Shown: positions 1 to 63,430 of the stretch, piece after piece
Numbering within the stretch: position 1 is the first letter of the stretch
Layout of the letters: each line of letters begins with the position of its first letter
Source: Novakomyces olei
Taxonomy: Eukaryota
NCBI GenBank assembly: GCA_016906335.1
Contig: JADEYG010000004.1
Location: forward strand, 1,426,001 to 1,490,000
Direction: 5' to 3'
DNA: 64,000 nt
Notes under the pieces: model-generated
Databases searched by the model: none
Seen by the model: the letters and a program-made list of their open reading frames with translations, nothing else
Told to the model about the DNA's origin: nothing
Position numbers and translations under genes: made by a program

Positions 1-417
1 GGCGACAACGTATGGCTACTCCGTAAACACCTTCGTACGGACCGGCAGTCCGACAAACTCGACTACAAACGTCTCGGACCTTTCCAAATACTCGAACGCA
101 TCGGTACTCGATCATACAAGCTGAAGCTACCACAGTCTATGCGTGTTCATCCAGTATTTCATATTTCGCTACTGGAACCATACAAAACCTCCTCTCAATT
201 CCATCGGCAGCAACTCCAACTTCCCGATCCAGTCGTTTCCGACCAAGAACCTGAGTATGAAGTCGAATCTATCCTAGATCACCGGAAATTGGGACGACAT
301 ACGTACTATCTGGTCCACTGGAAAGGTTACTCTATCGCCGAACGCACCTGGGAACCACTCAAAAACCTTCAAAACGCTAAGTCACTGGTCCAAGAGTACC
401 ATAGGACACGAAACTAG
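1..417 (+). CDS. Gypsy integrase C-terminus (GPF motif) plus chromodomain, partial
   Basis: Frame open from base 1: ...KLDYKRLGPF...VHPVFHISLLEPY...EYEVESILDHR...YLVHWKGYSIAERTWEP. Confidence 0.92.
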   Translation, partial: GDNVWLLRKHLRTDRQSDKLDYKRLGPFQILERIGTRSYKLKLPQSMRVHPVFHISLLEPYKTSSQFHRQQLQLPDPVVSDQEPEYEVESILDHRKLGRHTYYLVHWKGYSIAERTWEPLKNLQNAKSLVQEYHRTRN

Positions 418-715
418 CGCCCAGACTACCGCCAGTACACCTCTATGGCCACCCAGTCCACCTTGATCCTCTTACGCTTCCGCTTACCCCTCAAACTGCC
501 AGATATCCCAACAACCAATTATCCTATCCCAAAAGTTGGGTTAAGTCCCGACAAACTACCACCACTCGCGAAATCAGGGTTAACCAATAACCCTAGGGTT
601 TACATTTATTGGAGTGGACAGTAGGGTTATTTAGGGTTATTTAGGGCTTATAAATTATTACTCTGCGAAGCATTAATTTCAAAAAAAAAAAAAAAAAAAA
701 AAAAAAAAAAAATCC

Positions 716-1130
716 CTATTCTTGGGTCGCCGGTTCCGATTCCGATGGCGGGGCCTCACTCTCAACGGGCTCCTCCACCTCGTGCTCCTCCTCAAGCTTA
801 TGCAGCATTTCGAACGCTCTCAAACGCGCATTCGCCGACACGAGCTCCTCTTGAGCCGATTTCAAGGCCGCGCGCAATTCCAACACATACTGCGTAATCG
901 CCTCTAGGGGGTCCTCTCGACCGCGCTTAACCCCGCGGGCCCCCCCACAAGCGTTGCTGCATGTCACTAAGCTCGAACGGGTACTCGCCGTCACACGGCT
1001 TTCCCGCATTCGCACAACGCAAACACTTTGGCTTTTGGCGACCCGTTCGACGCACCCACACACAATCGTGGGGTTTGCCAAACGCAGTACACCTCGAGCA
1101 CGGACCAGCAACACTTCTCTTCTGCTCTTC
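716..1130 (-). CDS. Antisense accessory gene of E1: Zn2Cys6-like cluster plus coiled coil and acidic tail (1-nt frameshift at the C7 run 940-946; start not resolved)
   Basis: Frame 1130->927 reads PCSRCTAFGKPHDCVWVRRTGRQKPKCLRCANAGKPCDG (not in the ORF track). Removing one G joins it to REDPLEAITQYVLELRAALKSAQEELVSANARL...EPATQE*. Confidence 0.7.
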
Positions 1131-1236
1131 CTATGGATGGATCAAATTTTTTCTCTCACCCTCCTTTTATTCAGTATTTGTCGCTACATTACTTATTTGC
1201 CCTCACAGGAGTTCGCGCCTCCGAGGGGGGGTATCG

Positions 1237-59533: not shown

Positions 59534-60211
59534 CGCTAAGTTCACTGCTGAGGGCTGGTAGAGTTGCGTTTGCTGAAAATATTTTCAGGCCAGTTAATTT
59601 ATATAGAACGGTTATCAATCTTAAGTAATCGTCCGTATATAATAAGTCGTACCGGTAATATATATATAACGGTATATATAATAATATAAGTAACCAATAT
59701 AATAACAACACATATAATAATATTATGTGTGGATAATAAGGTCGCTAAGTTGTCCGCTCTGGGCGTCATATTTAGCGTCACAATAAATAATCTTTTGCGA
59801 TAATAAACGGTCGCTAAGTTGCCCGCTCTGGGCGCCATATTTAGCGTCGTATGAAATAAATAATAAAGTGCGATAATAGCGTGTATACGTGATACATAGC
59901 ACAAATATTGCAGAGCATTACTCCCCCTTCAATAATAGGTGGGTTCCTTAATAGAAAAATAATAAATAAATAGAATCAATAATTAGTTCAGAAAATAGTT
60001 ATTTGGGCAAGATAGATTCGAATAGATAATAAAGAATCAATATAAAAATCAAGCTGTATGAGGTTGAGGCATACAATAACAAGGGTACCGGAGTTGAATC
60101 AGTGTCCCATTTCGTAGTAAAACAATAAAAATGTTGGTGTAATAGAAGTTTTTATCCCTGAATTAAAATCAATAAGTGATAAAAAGCATAATTAGAGAAT
60201 AATTGGTAGTT

Positions 60212-63200
60212 TCAAAGGTTGCGATTGTGATATTCGCGTAAAGCGTCTTGTGCATTAACCAAGTTTTCGTATGGTTCCCAGGTACGGTCTTCTGGTCCAT
60301 AGTTTTTCCAATGGACGTAATATTGGCGGTTCTTTCCACGTCCACGATGACTGACGATATGATCAACTTCATATTCTTCTGTGTCTTTGAGTATATCGGG
60401 CACAATTTGTTCTGTCGATTCACGATTAAATCGGTCAGGTTTGTGTCTTGAGAGCAGTGTTTCATGAAAAACATTGTGGATTTTAATATGATCTGGTAAT
60501 TCAATGCGATAAGCGGCTGGGCCAACTGTAGCTATAATGGGAAAAGGTCCGAGAAAAACATGATCGAGCTTTGGGCTTGGTCTTGATGATAAAATGTGTT
60601 CTCTTCGTATCCAAACTAAGTCGCCAATGGTGAATTTGGGTGCTTCCAGTCGTTTGCGATCATAAAAATCTTTCATTCTTTGAACTGATTGTTTGAGTAT
60701 AGATTGTGTAGAATTAAAGTGGTTTTTCCAATCCATAGCAAGTTTGTTAGCAGATTCATTCGGCGTCTGCAGTGGTGTAAAAGCGCTTCTTGGGTGATAA
60801 CCGTAGCAAGTAAAAAATGGGCTTTGTTTGGTGCTCGCGCTTATAGTATTGTTGTAAGCGAATTCGGCAAAAGGGAGCAAATCAGACCAATTGTCTTGTT
60901 GGTAATTAGAATAACAGCGTATGTACTGTTCCAAAGTTTGATTTAGTCGTTCCGTTGGCCATCTGTTTGGGGATGGTGGCTGGTTGACTTTCGTAGTGTA
61001 ACGCCAAGTTGTTGCGTTAGTGAATTCCAAAATTTGCTAACAAATCGTGTATCGCGATCCGATACGATGTCTTCTGGGATTCCATGTAGGCGGATAATTT
61101 CCTTGATAAAAATGTGTGTGAGATCGAAAGATGTAATTGTTTCGACTGTTGGTATAAAGTGAGCCATCTTTGAAAATCGGTCTATCACAACAAAAATTGA
61201 ATCAAAGGATTAGAAATAGGCAGTTTAACAATAAAGTCAATAGAAATAGACTTCCAAGGGCGGTCGGGAACGTAGAGTGGTACTAGCAGTCCATAAGGGC
61301 GATGTCTGGGGACCTTGTTTCGGGTGCAAGTAGTGCAGCCTTGTACGTATTTCTTTACGTCGCGGTGAATTCCCTGCCAAAAGTAATTTCTGGTGACAAG
61401 TTCAATGGTTTTATTGATTCCTAAATGACCAGATAGCGGGTGATCATGACACGCTGCTAGAATCTCTTGTCGATTCTCGGGTGGCACAAATGTTTTGCCT
61501 TCTTCAACGGTGTTTACTGCGATAAACTGCGATTGTTTAAGCAGTGGTTTCAATTGTATCTTTTGATATTCAATATCCGTAGTATCTGCTAAGTCGGAGC
61601 GGCGGCTCAATGCGTCAGCAGGTATGTTTAATTGACCTCTTCGATAAATAATGTTAAAATCGAACTCAGCTAAGATCTCAGCCCATCTGGCTTGTCGTCT
61701 GGTGAGTATTTTCGATGTTGTAAACGTTTGTAGGTTTTGGTGATCACTGTAGATCAGTATAGGATGTGGTGAGCCATGTAAATAATGACGCCATGTGCGT
61801 AAACTCCACACGATACACAAAAGTTCTTTGTCGTAAATGTCGTAATTTAGCTCTGCTGGTAGTAGCTTTCTACTAATGAAGGCGATAGGTCGTTTGTCTT
61901 TGCTTTGTTGTCGTAGACAGGCGCCTAAAGCAAAGTCTGAAGCGTCTGTTTCAATGACACATTGCAAATTGTTATCAATATGATCAAGCATAACATTTTT
62001 TAGAAATGATTTCTTCAAGTCGCTAAAAGCGTCGCTCTGAGCGGCGGTCCAAGCGAATGCGGTTTTTTGCTTGAGTAACTCAGTTATTGGTAATACAATT
62101 TTCGAGAAATTCGGGATAAAGCGGCGATAGTAGTTGCAGAAACCTAAAAGAATTTGCACGTCTTTGACATTCTTTGGCTGTGGCCAGTTTTGTATTGGCT
62201 CTGTTTTCGATTTTGCCATTGACAGTCCATCTTTTGATATGATATATCCTAGAAATTCAACAGTAGCTTTGTGAAATTCACATTTTTCTAGTTTCACATA
62301 TAAAGTGTGTTGTCGTAAGCGATAAAGTACTTCGCGAACATCCTGAAGGTGTTGCTCAAGGGTCTTGCTATATACTAGAATGTCGTCTAGATAAACCAAA
62401 ACTTTGACATCTAATATATCTCGAAATATGTCATTCATTAAATTTTGAAACGTCGCTGGTGCATTTGTAAGTCCAAATGGCATTACGCGATATTCAAATA
62501 ATCCATAGCGAGTACGAAATGCTGTTTTCCATTCGTCTCCTTTCTTAATTCTGATGAGGTTGTATGCACCTCGCAAATCTAGTTTAGTGAAGTAGATGGC
62601 CTGCGCTAACTTATCAATAAGTCCATCAATGCGCGGCAAAGGATAACGGTTCTTCACTGTAACTTTGTTTAAAGCTCTGTAGTCGACACAGAGTCTAAGG
62701 TCACCGTCTTTCTTCGGTGCAAATAGTACAGGTGATGCAGCTGGACTTTAGATTTTCGAATAAATCCTGATTGCAAGTTTTCTTCCAAGTACTTTAGTAG
62801 ATAGTCTTGTTCTTTCGGTGTAGTTCCATAAACTGGTCCGAATGGGATCTTGGCATCTTTCTCTAGTACGATTTCGTGATCGTATGAGCGGTGTGGCGGT
62901 AGTTCCAATTGTTCTTGCTCGCCAAATACATCTTTAAATTCCTGATACTCTTCTGGTATCTTGGTTGCAGTTGAGGTAACTTCTGTAATGTCCAATTCCA
63001 GAACGTCCTCGTTTTTGGCAGATGTAATTATGTTTTCATCGTCTGTTGAATCACTTACTTCCTCAGTGTGAGGTTCAAATTCGGTGTTCATTGATGTTTC
63101 CGTGAAGGTATTACTGGTCGTCTCCCATGCAATAGTACCTTCTTTCCAATTAATTATGGGGTTGTGCTTTCTTAGCCAATCTACTCCCAGTAACATGTTA

Positions 63201-63430
63201 TTTGTTCCGATCTCGGCAACTAAAAATCTTGTATCCGTCTCGTATCCATTGATACTCAGGTTCAAACTGTCGGTTCGCTTAATTGCTTGACGTGAACGTA
63301 TAGTTCTCCCGTCAGCCACGCGTACAGTAATAGGATTCTTTAATGGAGCAGTTTCGATCTTCAACTTATCTGCTAGCTTCCAGTGCATAAAGCTTGAGCT
63401 CGCGCCGGAGTCAACTAAAGCCGTAAAACT
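60212..63430 (-). pseudogene. D1 pol: protease, RT, RNase H, integrase, chromodomain, with frameshifts at ~62745, ~61200, ~60960
   Basis: LVDSGASS (63395-63420), [38 protein letters not shown]...TWEP. Confidence 0.92.

Follow-up and report, generated by a model that had tools for sequence, protein, structure and literature searches.

Additional open reading frames (ORFs) in retrotransposons with long terminal repeats (LTRs) have been described chiefly in plants, with functions that are undefined in nearly all cases. We describe such ORFs in a fungus, in a stretch of 64,000 nucleotides from Novakomyces olei (contig JADEYG010000004.1; hereafter the window, numbered from its first letter) that is a nest of chromodomain Ty3/Gypsy elements in three pol lineages, designated B, G, and D. 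Among the closest described systems, antisense additional ORFs (aORFs) between pol and the 3' LTR are listed in PMC7264820 for maize Grande, rice RIRE2, Silene Retand, and Phaseolus PvRetro13, and a further antisense ORF at this site, brtn, is attributed to Zhao et al. 2011 for the element Boty of Botrytis and Sclerotinia (PMC7264820, PMC8365987). The latter is overlooked by the statement, made in an earlier reading of this window from its letters alone (the sequence-only reading), that typical fungal chromoviruses encode only gag and pol. Ty3/Gypsy elements of orchids are reported to have acquired an ALKB N6-methyladenosine (m6A) RNA demethylase domain, in an event called rare (PMC9289625). 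The Arabidopsis DNA transposon VANDAL21 encodes VANC21, described as an anti-silencing protein (PMC8616336, citing Fu 2013 and Hosaka 2017), and in rice tungro bacilliform virus (RTBV) an AUU-initiated ORF I, together with ~900 nt free of AUG, is described as letting ribosomes reach later ORFs (PMC5902531).

That LTR elements can carry extra ORFs is well established; the variants at this locus are a JmjC gene carried beside a chromodomain integrase, a leader without ATG that contains an ORF0, and three different extra genes in co-resident lineages. Our reading, to which we assign a probability of roughly 0.7, is that every one of the three pol lineages has an additional gene of its own that is inherited as an integral component of its elements, with roles and mechanisms as proposed below for each lineage. 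Family-level comparisons drew on the copies within the window, protein libraries, and a single public DNA run (X1), possibly the very sample behind the window's assembly; the copy counts (ORF0 in 3/3, JmjC in 2/2, and a six-Cys ORF in 2/3 elements) cover the window only. All 213 stop-to-stop ORFs of at least 70 aa in the window (30 + 150 + 33) were scanned with Pfam. Coordinates of the elements and their genes are collected in Table 1; the element names are our own, and matching them to the lettered families of the sequence-only reading is for the most part conjectural.

Nested transposable elements fill 1–32.3 kb and 53.6–64 kb of the window. Between lineages, the pol proteins share 30–51% amino acid identity (D1 versus the G elements, 46–51%; B versus all others, 30–32%), and the G2 and G3 pol proteins are 77% identical. 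Pfam places a Chromo domain at the integrase C-terminus of G1 (E 6e-17), G2 (9e-16), G3 (3e-16), D1 (2e-15), and the B elements (1e-11 to 6e-9); with a chromodomain at the integrase end in every lineage, the B, G, and D elements are chromoviruses.

A sense JmjC gene in two D elements had been proposed in the sequence-only reading, and both copies were recovered: in D1 as a 346-codon ORF with a C2H2 finger and a JmjC domain, 630 bp past the pol stop, and in D2 as a diverged tail. The last codons of the D1 gene (…LLRGE) are the polypurine tract (PPT) GAGAGGGGAG itself, and a U3-like region with TATAAATAGAGG lies beyond the LTR start TGTTAGGGAG. The ending …LGRGE of the D2 gene is encoded on its own PPT, GGGAGGGGAGAG, and what remains of D2 runs from 56085 to ~55422. 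In both elements the PPT is followed at once by TGTTAG or TGTTAT, then by homologous U3 sequence with the same TATA motif. To judge from these sequences, a gene–PPT–LTR junction common to two copies this diverged is the strongest evidence that the JmjC gene belongs to the D lineage.

Contigs from the X1 run bear on the integrity of D1. One contig spans 59148–60525 and joins the JmjC gene to the chromodomain, and the sole X1 difference within the gene is synonymous (GAG to GAA at 58703). X1 contigs carry one extra base at each of 62746, 61209, and 60954, which are exactly the three frame breaks of D1 pol and all shift the frame in the same direction. Because the extra bases sit at all three breaks, D1 pol is probably intact, and the breaks are probably assembly errors or strain differences. 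Another X1 contig runs 162 nt past 63432 in sequence unlike the window, its last 30 letters being open in the protease frame when read by hand; at least one copy therefore lacks the 436-bp repeat by which the D1 protease is cut in the window. X1 contig depth, which is not copy number, is ~2x from the bin 58389–58604 leftward, just downstream of the JmjC stop, relative to JmjC and pol, a step that fits an LTR past that stop as weak evidence. The X1 contigs have further single extra bases at 59877 and 58039, and all five sites lie in short T, A, or G runs. The frameshifts in the G1 six-Cys ORF, the G3 integrase, the G2 reverse transcriptase (RT), and the Bi gag may likewise be assembly errors.

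The 436-bp repeat occurs three times (53662–54095, 56089–56524, and 63428–63863; copies 97–99% identical) and was considered as a candidate for the D LTR. It was rejected, since the PPT and TGTTAG stand at 58556–58543 and the repeat cuts the D1 protease; with the D1 LTR it shares only its last ~70 bp, and it is probably the LTR of a related family, no interior of which was seen. The first two copies end a repeated unit of 1.4–1.6 kb (53662–55232 and 56089–57524), and the repeat is preceded by an array of a 15-bp unit (TATAATAATGTATGG) in ~45 copies, extremely skewed in GC. A 189-bp piece (55233–55421) that matches the first 189 bp of the G2 LTR at 98.4% identity, in the opposite orientation, is wedged between this repeated unit and what is left of the D2 LTR.

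When the D1 ORF was searched with phmmer against 1.84 billion representatives, 172 matches were found at E ≤ 1e-3 and 27 at E ≤ 1e-10, none reaching 1e-30, and all covered residues ~175–305. A profile of 47 sequences (the query and 46 relatives) matched ceKDM7A (3n9l, 2.2e-13), KDM2A (5.5e-12), PHF8 (5e-9), PHF2 (5e-6), and also KDM7 in the PDB; the query alone gave 3n9l as its best match at E 0.0079. In the iron triad, H194 does not vary across the 47 sequences and D196 and H267 reach at least 90% conservation, all in alignment with the HVD…H of ceKDM7A and KDM2A. T191, within TDVH, is matched to the T of YTDFH in 3n9l, and K211, within GTK, to the K of its GEK, K211 being at least 90% conserved across the 47 sequences and T191 invariant among the eight closest; the residues matched are 2-oxoglutarate ligands in PHF8 and KDM7, a role that T191 and K211 would share. 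An N-terminal C2H2-like finger is also present in four of the seven closest relatives. The D1 protein resembles the KDM2/KDM7/PHF8/PHF2 structures (3n9l, 4qwn, 3k3n, 3ptr) in a profile similarity over ~160 positions, in the HxD…H triad, and in the aligned Thr and Lys. It differs from them in being no more than about 25–30% identical, in having a single C2H2 finger in place of PHD, CXXC, and F-box domains, and in being encoded by a retrotransposon. The D1 family is a diverged branch of JmjC proteins, one mostly missed by Pfam.

By this homology the D protein, with one C2H2 finger and a complete JmjC domain of the KDM2/KDM7/PHF8 type, would most likely be an Fe(II)/2-oxoglutarate oxygenase acting on methyl-lysine in the chromatin around the element, and its activity would counter the heterochromatin read by the element's own chromodomain integrase. 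The orchid ALKB elements, as far as they are described in PMC9289625, would be alike in that a Gypsy element captured an Fe(II)/2-oxoglutarate oxygenase of a type that removes methyl marks, the activity of the D protein being predicted; they are of the AlkB type and act on m6A in RNA, whereas the D gene is of the JmjC histone-lysine-demethylase type, stands as a separate gene after pol with a C2H2 finger, and has a fungal host. VANC21 offers a second, purely functional parallel, as a transposon-encoded remover of silencing marks from its own family, which is the anti-silencing role proposed here for the JmjC protein. VANC, however, is no member of an enzyme family; its target is DNA methylation, and the element that encodes it is a DNA transposon.

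Several observations weigh against the assignment of a JmjC gene to the D elements. Pfam reports no JmjC match in any of the 213 window ORFs, and the D1 ORF itself matches no family at E ≤ 0.01 (Cupin_2 at E 0.25 being its only hit); among the 47 family members, five match JmjC-type models (JmjC_2 three, JmjC one, Cupin_8 two). A word-indexed search, limited to proteins of near length, returned no relatives, and the AlphaFold single-sequence model has a predicted local distance difference test score (pLDDT) of 33, too poor to judge the fold. Neither gag nor a 5' LTR accompanies D1 in the window, so that no D element complete from LTR to LTR is present here, and the 3' boundary of the D LTR is tentative. 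RT, integrase, and chromo domains are absent from all 22 JmjC relatives scanned; at the single relative's locus viewed (one metagenome contig), the gene begins 203 bp from the upstream contig end and the six downstream ORFs have no Pfam family. Outside this genome the JmjC family may therefore consist of ordinary host genes, and since none of the 22 relatives carries transposon domains, a gene family of a fungal host is the probable source from which the D gene was captured.

A rival account accepts the extra ORFs as genuine genes but treats them as passive cargo: the JmjC gene, and possibly the six-Cys ORF, would have come from the host through read-through or template switching and would be carried only for a time, with no part in the life cycle of the element or in chromatin defence. 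The named proteins that share the C2H2 + JmjC layout, hypothetical proteins of Tilletia horrida and Mycena vulgaris, are consistent with it, as are the metagenomic ones (eight of the ten relatives looked up come from metagenomes or unnamed sources) and the lack of any fusion to transposon domains among the 22; so, for the G lineage discussed below, are the G2 element that does without a six-Cys gene and the broken copy in G1. We nevertheless consider passive cargo unlikely, as the D1 and D2 tails are only 33% identical yet both end on the PPT, so that the gene has been carried through a long lineage divergence that passive cargo rarely survives. The catalytic residues are, moreover, intact, and the one difference between window and X1 within the gene is silent.

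In the B lineage, the ORF0 that had been noted at the 5' side proved to be present in all three copies that reach the 5' end (Bf, Bo, and Bi), in stop-to-stop frames of 242–243 codons lying directly after the 5' LTR end and before gag. In Bi it is integral to an element with both LTRs and a target duplication (GAGCG), between the 5' LTR and gag. The copies have 51–55% amino acid identity and are only ~75% identical in DNA, and the ratio of nonsynonymous to synonymous substitution (dN/dS, Nei–Gojobori, three copies) is 0.17–0.32 overall; in the C-terminal 40% it is 0.10–0.15 for the two computable pairs, the third being saturated at synonymous sites. As a frame control, the corresponding ratio of proportions (pN/pS) in the ORF0 frame is 0.36–0.49 with zero stops, against 0.88–1.31 with 8–23 stops in the two shifted frames of the same columns. 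ORF0 is under purifying selection, and in that frame only. The protein is highly basic and contains the motif KRRERNARRSEAFKERK, followed by a conserved C-terminal region of ~100 residues.

The leader that holds ORF0 is free of ATG in every frame upstream of the gag ATG, for 849, 917, and 923 nt in the three copies, where 14–19 ATG would be expected from base composition, and Met codons are lacking from ORF0 in all three. Three in-frame candidate near-cognate starts, CTG at codon 5, GTG at codon 10, and TTG at about codon 32, are conserved in all three copies, all in poor context. The position of the ORF0 stop is also conserved; it is followed by a poorly conserved, AT-rich spacer of ~70 nt and then by the conserved gag ATG (ATGGAYTTYAARATYAAR). 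Because the whole leader up to the gag AUG lacks AUG in all frames, we propose that the B genomic RNA is read by leaky scanning: a minority of scanning ribosomes would start ORF0 at a near-cognate codon, and the remainder would scan on to gag. A bicistronic genomic RNA read in this way is the most likely arrangement and the most economical reading of the ORF0 leader, and ORF0 would be expressed by it. The parallel is the pregenomic RNA of RTBV and the badnaviruses, which likewise has a long upstream ORF lacking an AUG start, with ~900 nt free of internal AUG there and 849–923 nt free of ATG in all three B copies. RTBV is, in contrast, a plant pararetrovirus that also uses ribosome shunting, whereas B is a fungal LTR retrotransposon for which the start codons are candidates only. 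The ORF0 leader would then be a fungal retrotransposon case of the leaky-scanning design of plant pararetroviruses.

ORF0 could instead encode a structural or replication protein, such as an extra Gag-like protein or a nucleic-acid chaperone, or an N-terminal extension of Gag, in place of a regulator. It lies directly before gag, in Bo even in the same frame (4151 and 4922), and its highly basic product, which matches no DNA-binding family, recalls nucleocapsid proteins. A fusion to Gag would need double read-through, as two in-frame stops and the poorly conserved AT-rich spacer separate ORF0 from the conserved gag ATG. We regard this alternative as possible but doubtful; it departs from the reading of ORF0 as an inherited accessory gene only in the role given to its protein. 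Weighing more generally on any role for ORF0, no relatives were found in Pfam, in the word-indexed search (near-length proteins only), or in the ESM Atlas (no usable match), and AlphaFold with the three-sequence alignment gave a pLDDT of 53.6, too poor to judge the fold, with the C-terminal part predicted to be helical at low confidence.

The third additional gene lies antisense in the G lineage. In G3, a six-Cys ORF occupies part of the 841 bp that separate the pol stop (27725) from the PPT (~28560); its cysteine module is followed by what appear, by eye from the translation, to be an Arg/Glu-rich helix and a heptad-like tail. In the counterpart region of G1 (~820 bp), a six-Cys ORF has the same position, orientation, and layout, its frame being broken at a run of seven G (~941–947) beyond which a helical, heptad-like tail continues. 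The cysteine modules of the two align at all six Cys with 27% identity (BLASTP E 0.001, a single comparison). Two of the three G elements therefore carry the ORF, one intact and one frameshifted. A stop-free six-Cys pattern was found three times in the window, in G1, in G3, and in a host Zn_clus gene (41277–41363), compared with a mean of 0.005 in 200 composition-preserving block shuffles. Relative to the Zn2Cys6 spacing CX2CX6CX5-12CX2CX6-8C, G3 fits, and G1, with CX8 in place of CX6, is two residues longer. The gene would probably be transcribed inward, starting at the 3' end of the element, and its product would be a small zinc protein that forms dimers.

The sequence-only reading had called these ORFs Zn2Cys6 genes. 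Antisense six-Cys ORFs are indeed present in G1 and G3; the family assignment did not hold, as both miss the Pfam Zn_clus (PF00172) cut-off of 21 bits (10.5 and 13.9 bits for G3, with an E value of 0.69 when the complete ORF is scanned and 0.058 when only its Cys part is, and 16.8 bits for G1), and the only Zn_clus match among the 213 ORFs is the host gene at 41166–41417. A PDB search with the six-Cys ORFs gave no match to Gal4-type domains, the word-indexed search (near-length proteins only) gave no relatives, and the best ESM Atlas score, 0.77, is a lead only. In addition, the G1 copy has no ATG ahead of its cysteines as well as a broken frame, and G2, the sister of G3, has no six-Cys gene. 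On these results we describe the G1/G3 ORF as a conserved antisense ORF with Zn2Cys6-like spacing, not as a member of the Zn2Cys6 family. It resembles the aORFs in its position between pol and the 3' LTR, its antisense orientation, its small size, its undefined function, and its occurrence in several members of a lineage. The sequences are, as far as compared, unrelated (that of brtn was outside the comparison), and the Zn2Cys6-like Cys spacing is particular to G; the hosts of aORFs are mainly plants, whereas the present elements belong to the chromoviruses and reside in a fungus for which the nearest named protein relatives come from basidiomycetes.

G2 presumably corresponds to the element for which the earlier reading had left the 3' region open, and rightly so: no six-Cys motif was found in the 578 bp between its pol and PPT, which are filled by a 206-codon sense ORF that belongs to no known family in Pfam and encodes a seemingly hydrophobic protein of low complexity. 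In 2000 shuffles of this stretch no ORF reached 206 codons (maximum 178), a comparison to be read with the fact that the stretch had been chosen by the ORF. The 3' regions of G1, G2, G3, and D1 have no DNA or translated similarity in common beyond the neighbourhood of the PPT, and there is therefore no recognisable remnant of a six-Cys gene in G2. We treat the 206-codon ORF as a candidate extra gene.

With all three lineages described, the extra ORFs can be weighed as copy-specific accidents, namely chance frames, debris of nested insertions, or assembly artefacts, which the sequence-only reading had itself named as the finding that would overturn it. The setting invites such an account: the region is heavily nested and includes odd inverted duplications (3594–4153, 19102–20887, and 31036–31535) and a 1.67-kb tandem duplication, the assembly and the X1 contigs differ by single bases at five listed sites in 6.5 kb, and neither the 206-codon ORF of G2 nor the six-Cys ORFs have relatives. 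It fails for ORF0, which is under frame-specific purifying selection in three diverged copies, and for the JmjC ORF, which has 172 significant relatives, abuts the PPT in two diverged elements, and is confirmed by X1 to be contiguous with pol; for these two genes it is largely refuted already. It is unlikely for the six-Cys ORF, whose pattern is ~600 times commoner than in shuffles and stands at the same place in two elements. Overall we think accident very improbable.

What stands of the earlier claim is that the extra ORFs are features at the level of the lineage, with ORF0 in 3/3 copies despite ~25% DNA difference, JmjC at the PPT in 2/2 at 33% identity, and the six-Cys ORF at the same place in 2/3. 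The regulatory role then ascribed to them is an inference, the six-Cys ORF missing its family threshold and ORF0 having no relatives. Talk of regulators in an arms race with chromatin goes beyond what homology suggests, as only the JmjC gene appears related to chromatin proteins, and the description of the elements as complex-retrovirus-like is an analogy, no splice sites or subgenomic RNAs having been seen. Three RNA runs with the same species label placed 0 reads on 57525–64000, which is uninformative on expression and adds nothing in favor of active genes. A bolder picture, which we consider speculative and rather unlikely, would give each lineage a distinct self-encoded chromatin or transcription factor: in D a JmjC "eraser" aimed at the element's own copies by the C2H2 finger and paired with a heterochromatin-reading chromodomain integrase, in G an antisense zinc-cluster-like DNA-binding dimer, and in B a basic protein made by non-AUG leaky scanning. 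The elements would then be a fungal counterpart of retroviruses with complex accessory genes and would include the first retrotransposon-borne histone demethylase. In the open-access literature, covered by titles and abstract openings of the top-ranked papers with subscription journals mostly outside this scope, no JmjC-bearing LTR retrotransposon and no zinc-cluster antisense gene was found.

The JmjC gene would give a readable biochemical identity beside a chromodomain integrase, and retrotransposon enzymes set against chromatin silencing become a directly testable hypothesis. Gene callers and Pfam miss extra genes of this kind, and the annotation of fungal transposons therefore underestimates the coding content of the elements.

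Table 1 Elements, additional genes, and element boundaries in the 64-kb window.
Feature	Positions	Strand	Remarks
G1 element, 5'-truncated by window start	1 to ~1235, LTR from 1236	+	
G1 end of pol (SH3_Tf2-1 + chromodomain)	1–414	+	SH3_Tf2-1 6.6e-22, Chromo 6.3e-17; 57%/52% identical to the same part of G2/G3
G1 antisense ORF	719–1130	-	six-Cys exon 1130–930; CX2CX8CX12CX2CX6C at 1100–993; tail to stop at 719
G1 PPT GAGGGGGGG and 3' LTR start TGTAATGAACC at 1236	1215–1245	+	read from sequence; parallels G2/G3 PPT and LTR starts
Bf, B-lineage fragment	2706 to 1729	-	
Bf ORF0	1885–2610	-	gag ATG at 1837 follows
Bo (outer B element), probable 5' LTR	3793–4153	+	self-BLAST; LTR end resembles that of Bi; region rearranged, boundary tentative
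Bo ORF0, 243 codons	4151–4879	+	without ATG
Bo gag	4949–5992	+	Pfam Retrotrans_gag; conserved ATG at 4949 after ~70-nt AT-rich spacer
Bi, full-length B element inserted in Bo	5979–20886	+	LTRs 5979–6301 and 20546–20886; 5-bp target duplication GAGCG
Bi ORF0, 232 codons counted from LTR end	6300–6995	+	without ATG; gag ATG at 7070
G2, complete Gypsy element	9327–15952	-	LTRs 631 bp, 99.8% identical; target duplication GAACT
G2 3' sense ORF, 206 codons	9930–10547	-	fills 578 bp from pol stop (10535) to PPT; extends 30 nt into LTR
G3, complete Gypsy element	22378–29277	+	LTRs ~706 bp (22378–23082, 28573–29277), ~99.4% identical; target duplication GTTAC
G3 antisense ORF, 170 codons stop to stop	27956–28465	-	Met codons at 28453 and 28408; CX2CX6CX12CX2CX6C
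D2 PPT GGGAGGGGAGAG, stop, and LTR start TGTTATGA at 55824	55422–55839	-	U3 with TATAAATAGAGG as in D1
D2 JmjC tail, last 86 codons, diverged	55828–56085	-	tblastn 33% identity, E 4e-8; cut at 56089 by 436-bp repeat
D1 PPT GAGAGGGGAG (58556–58547), stop, and LTR start TGTTAGGGAG at 58543	58530–58556	-	
D1 extra gene, C2H2 + JmjC, sense, 346 codons	58547–59584	-	first ATG 59533; C2H2 CX2CX12HX4H at residues 35–56; JmjC ~175–305
D1 pol (protease from DSG motif, RT, RNase H, integrase, chromodomain)	60212–63430	-	Pfam; four frames in window; protease cut by 436-bp repeat

The nesting of the B elements can be followed in detail. Bo is laid out as LTR, ORF0, and gag to ~5955, then resumes with protease to chromodomain at 20887–22377 and 29278–31052, having been split by Bi between gag and protease and again by G3. 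The sequence from 20887 (20887–20891 onward) was also considered as an LTR fused to protease by deletion of ORF0 and gag; this was rejected, as insertion of Bi into Bo, with its GAGCG duplication, explains it. An inverted partial copy of the Bo LTR lies just upstream of it (3594–3792). Bi itself carries the nested G2, the 1.67-kb tandem duplication in pol, and an inverted duplication at 19574–20452.

The 1.67-kb piece of Bi pol is present twice in tandem (8384–9326 plus 15953–16686 versus 16685–18356) at 99.5% identity; one copy holds G2, and the other is an empty site with a single GAACT. The arrangement suggests that two haplotypes, one of them lacking G2, were assembled one after the other, or else that the duplication is very recent. 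At the three inverted duplications named above, an LTR end or a pol–LTR junction is followed by its own inverted copy, in the form X-Y-rc(X) or X-Y-rc(X)-rc(Y), where rc is the reverse complement, at 96–100% identity; these junctions are either real fold-back rearrangements or artefacts of long-read assembly. The 27-kb B nest also splits a Copia element, of which the Pol_BBD part lies to the left (2942–3676, minus strand) and the gag part (Retrotran_gag_2) to the right (31589–32194, minus strand).

Between the two transposon-rich regions, 32.9–53 kb holds fungal host genes, identified by Pfam as a FunK1 kinase, HNH_2 proteins, the Zn_clus factor, an MFS transporter, a PhyH oxygenase, a Tse2-like domain protein, and an NmrA-like protein. 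The two ORFs with an HNH_2 endonuclease domain (39277–40167 and 48841–49761, plus strand) are 9.5 kb apart in this block. Beside the NmrA-like and HNH_2 genes, the ORF at 50529–51116 (minus strand) matches the Tse2 ADP-ribosyltransferase toxin domain with a Pfam E value of 4e-36, unusual for a fungal gene. A dense, short-period tandem repeat (32323–32654) that matches itself at many small offsets and is open in several frames lies directly upstream of the ORF for the FunK1 kinase (32895–35408).

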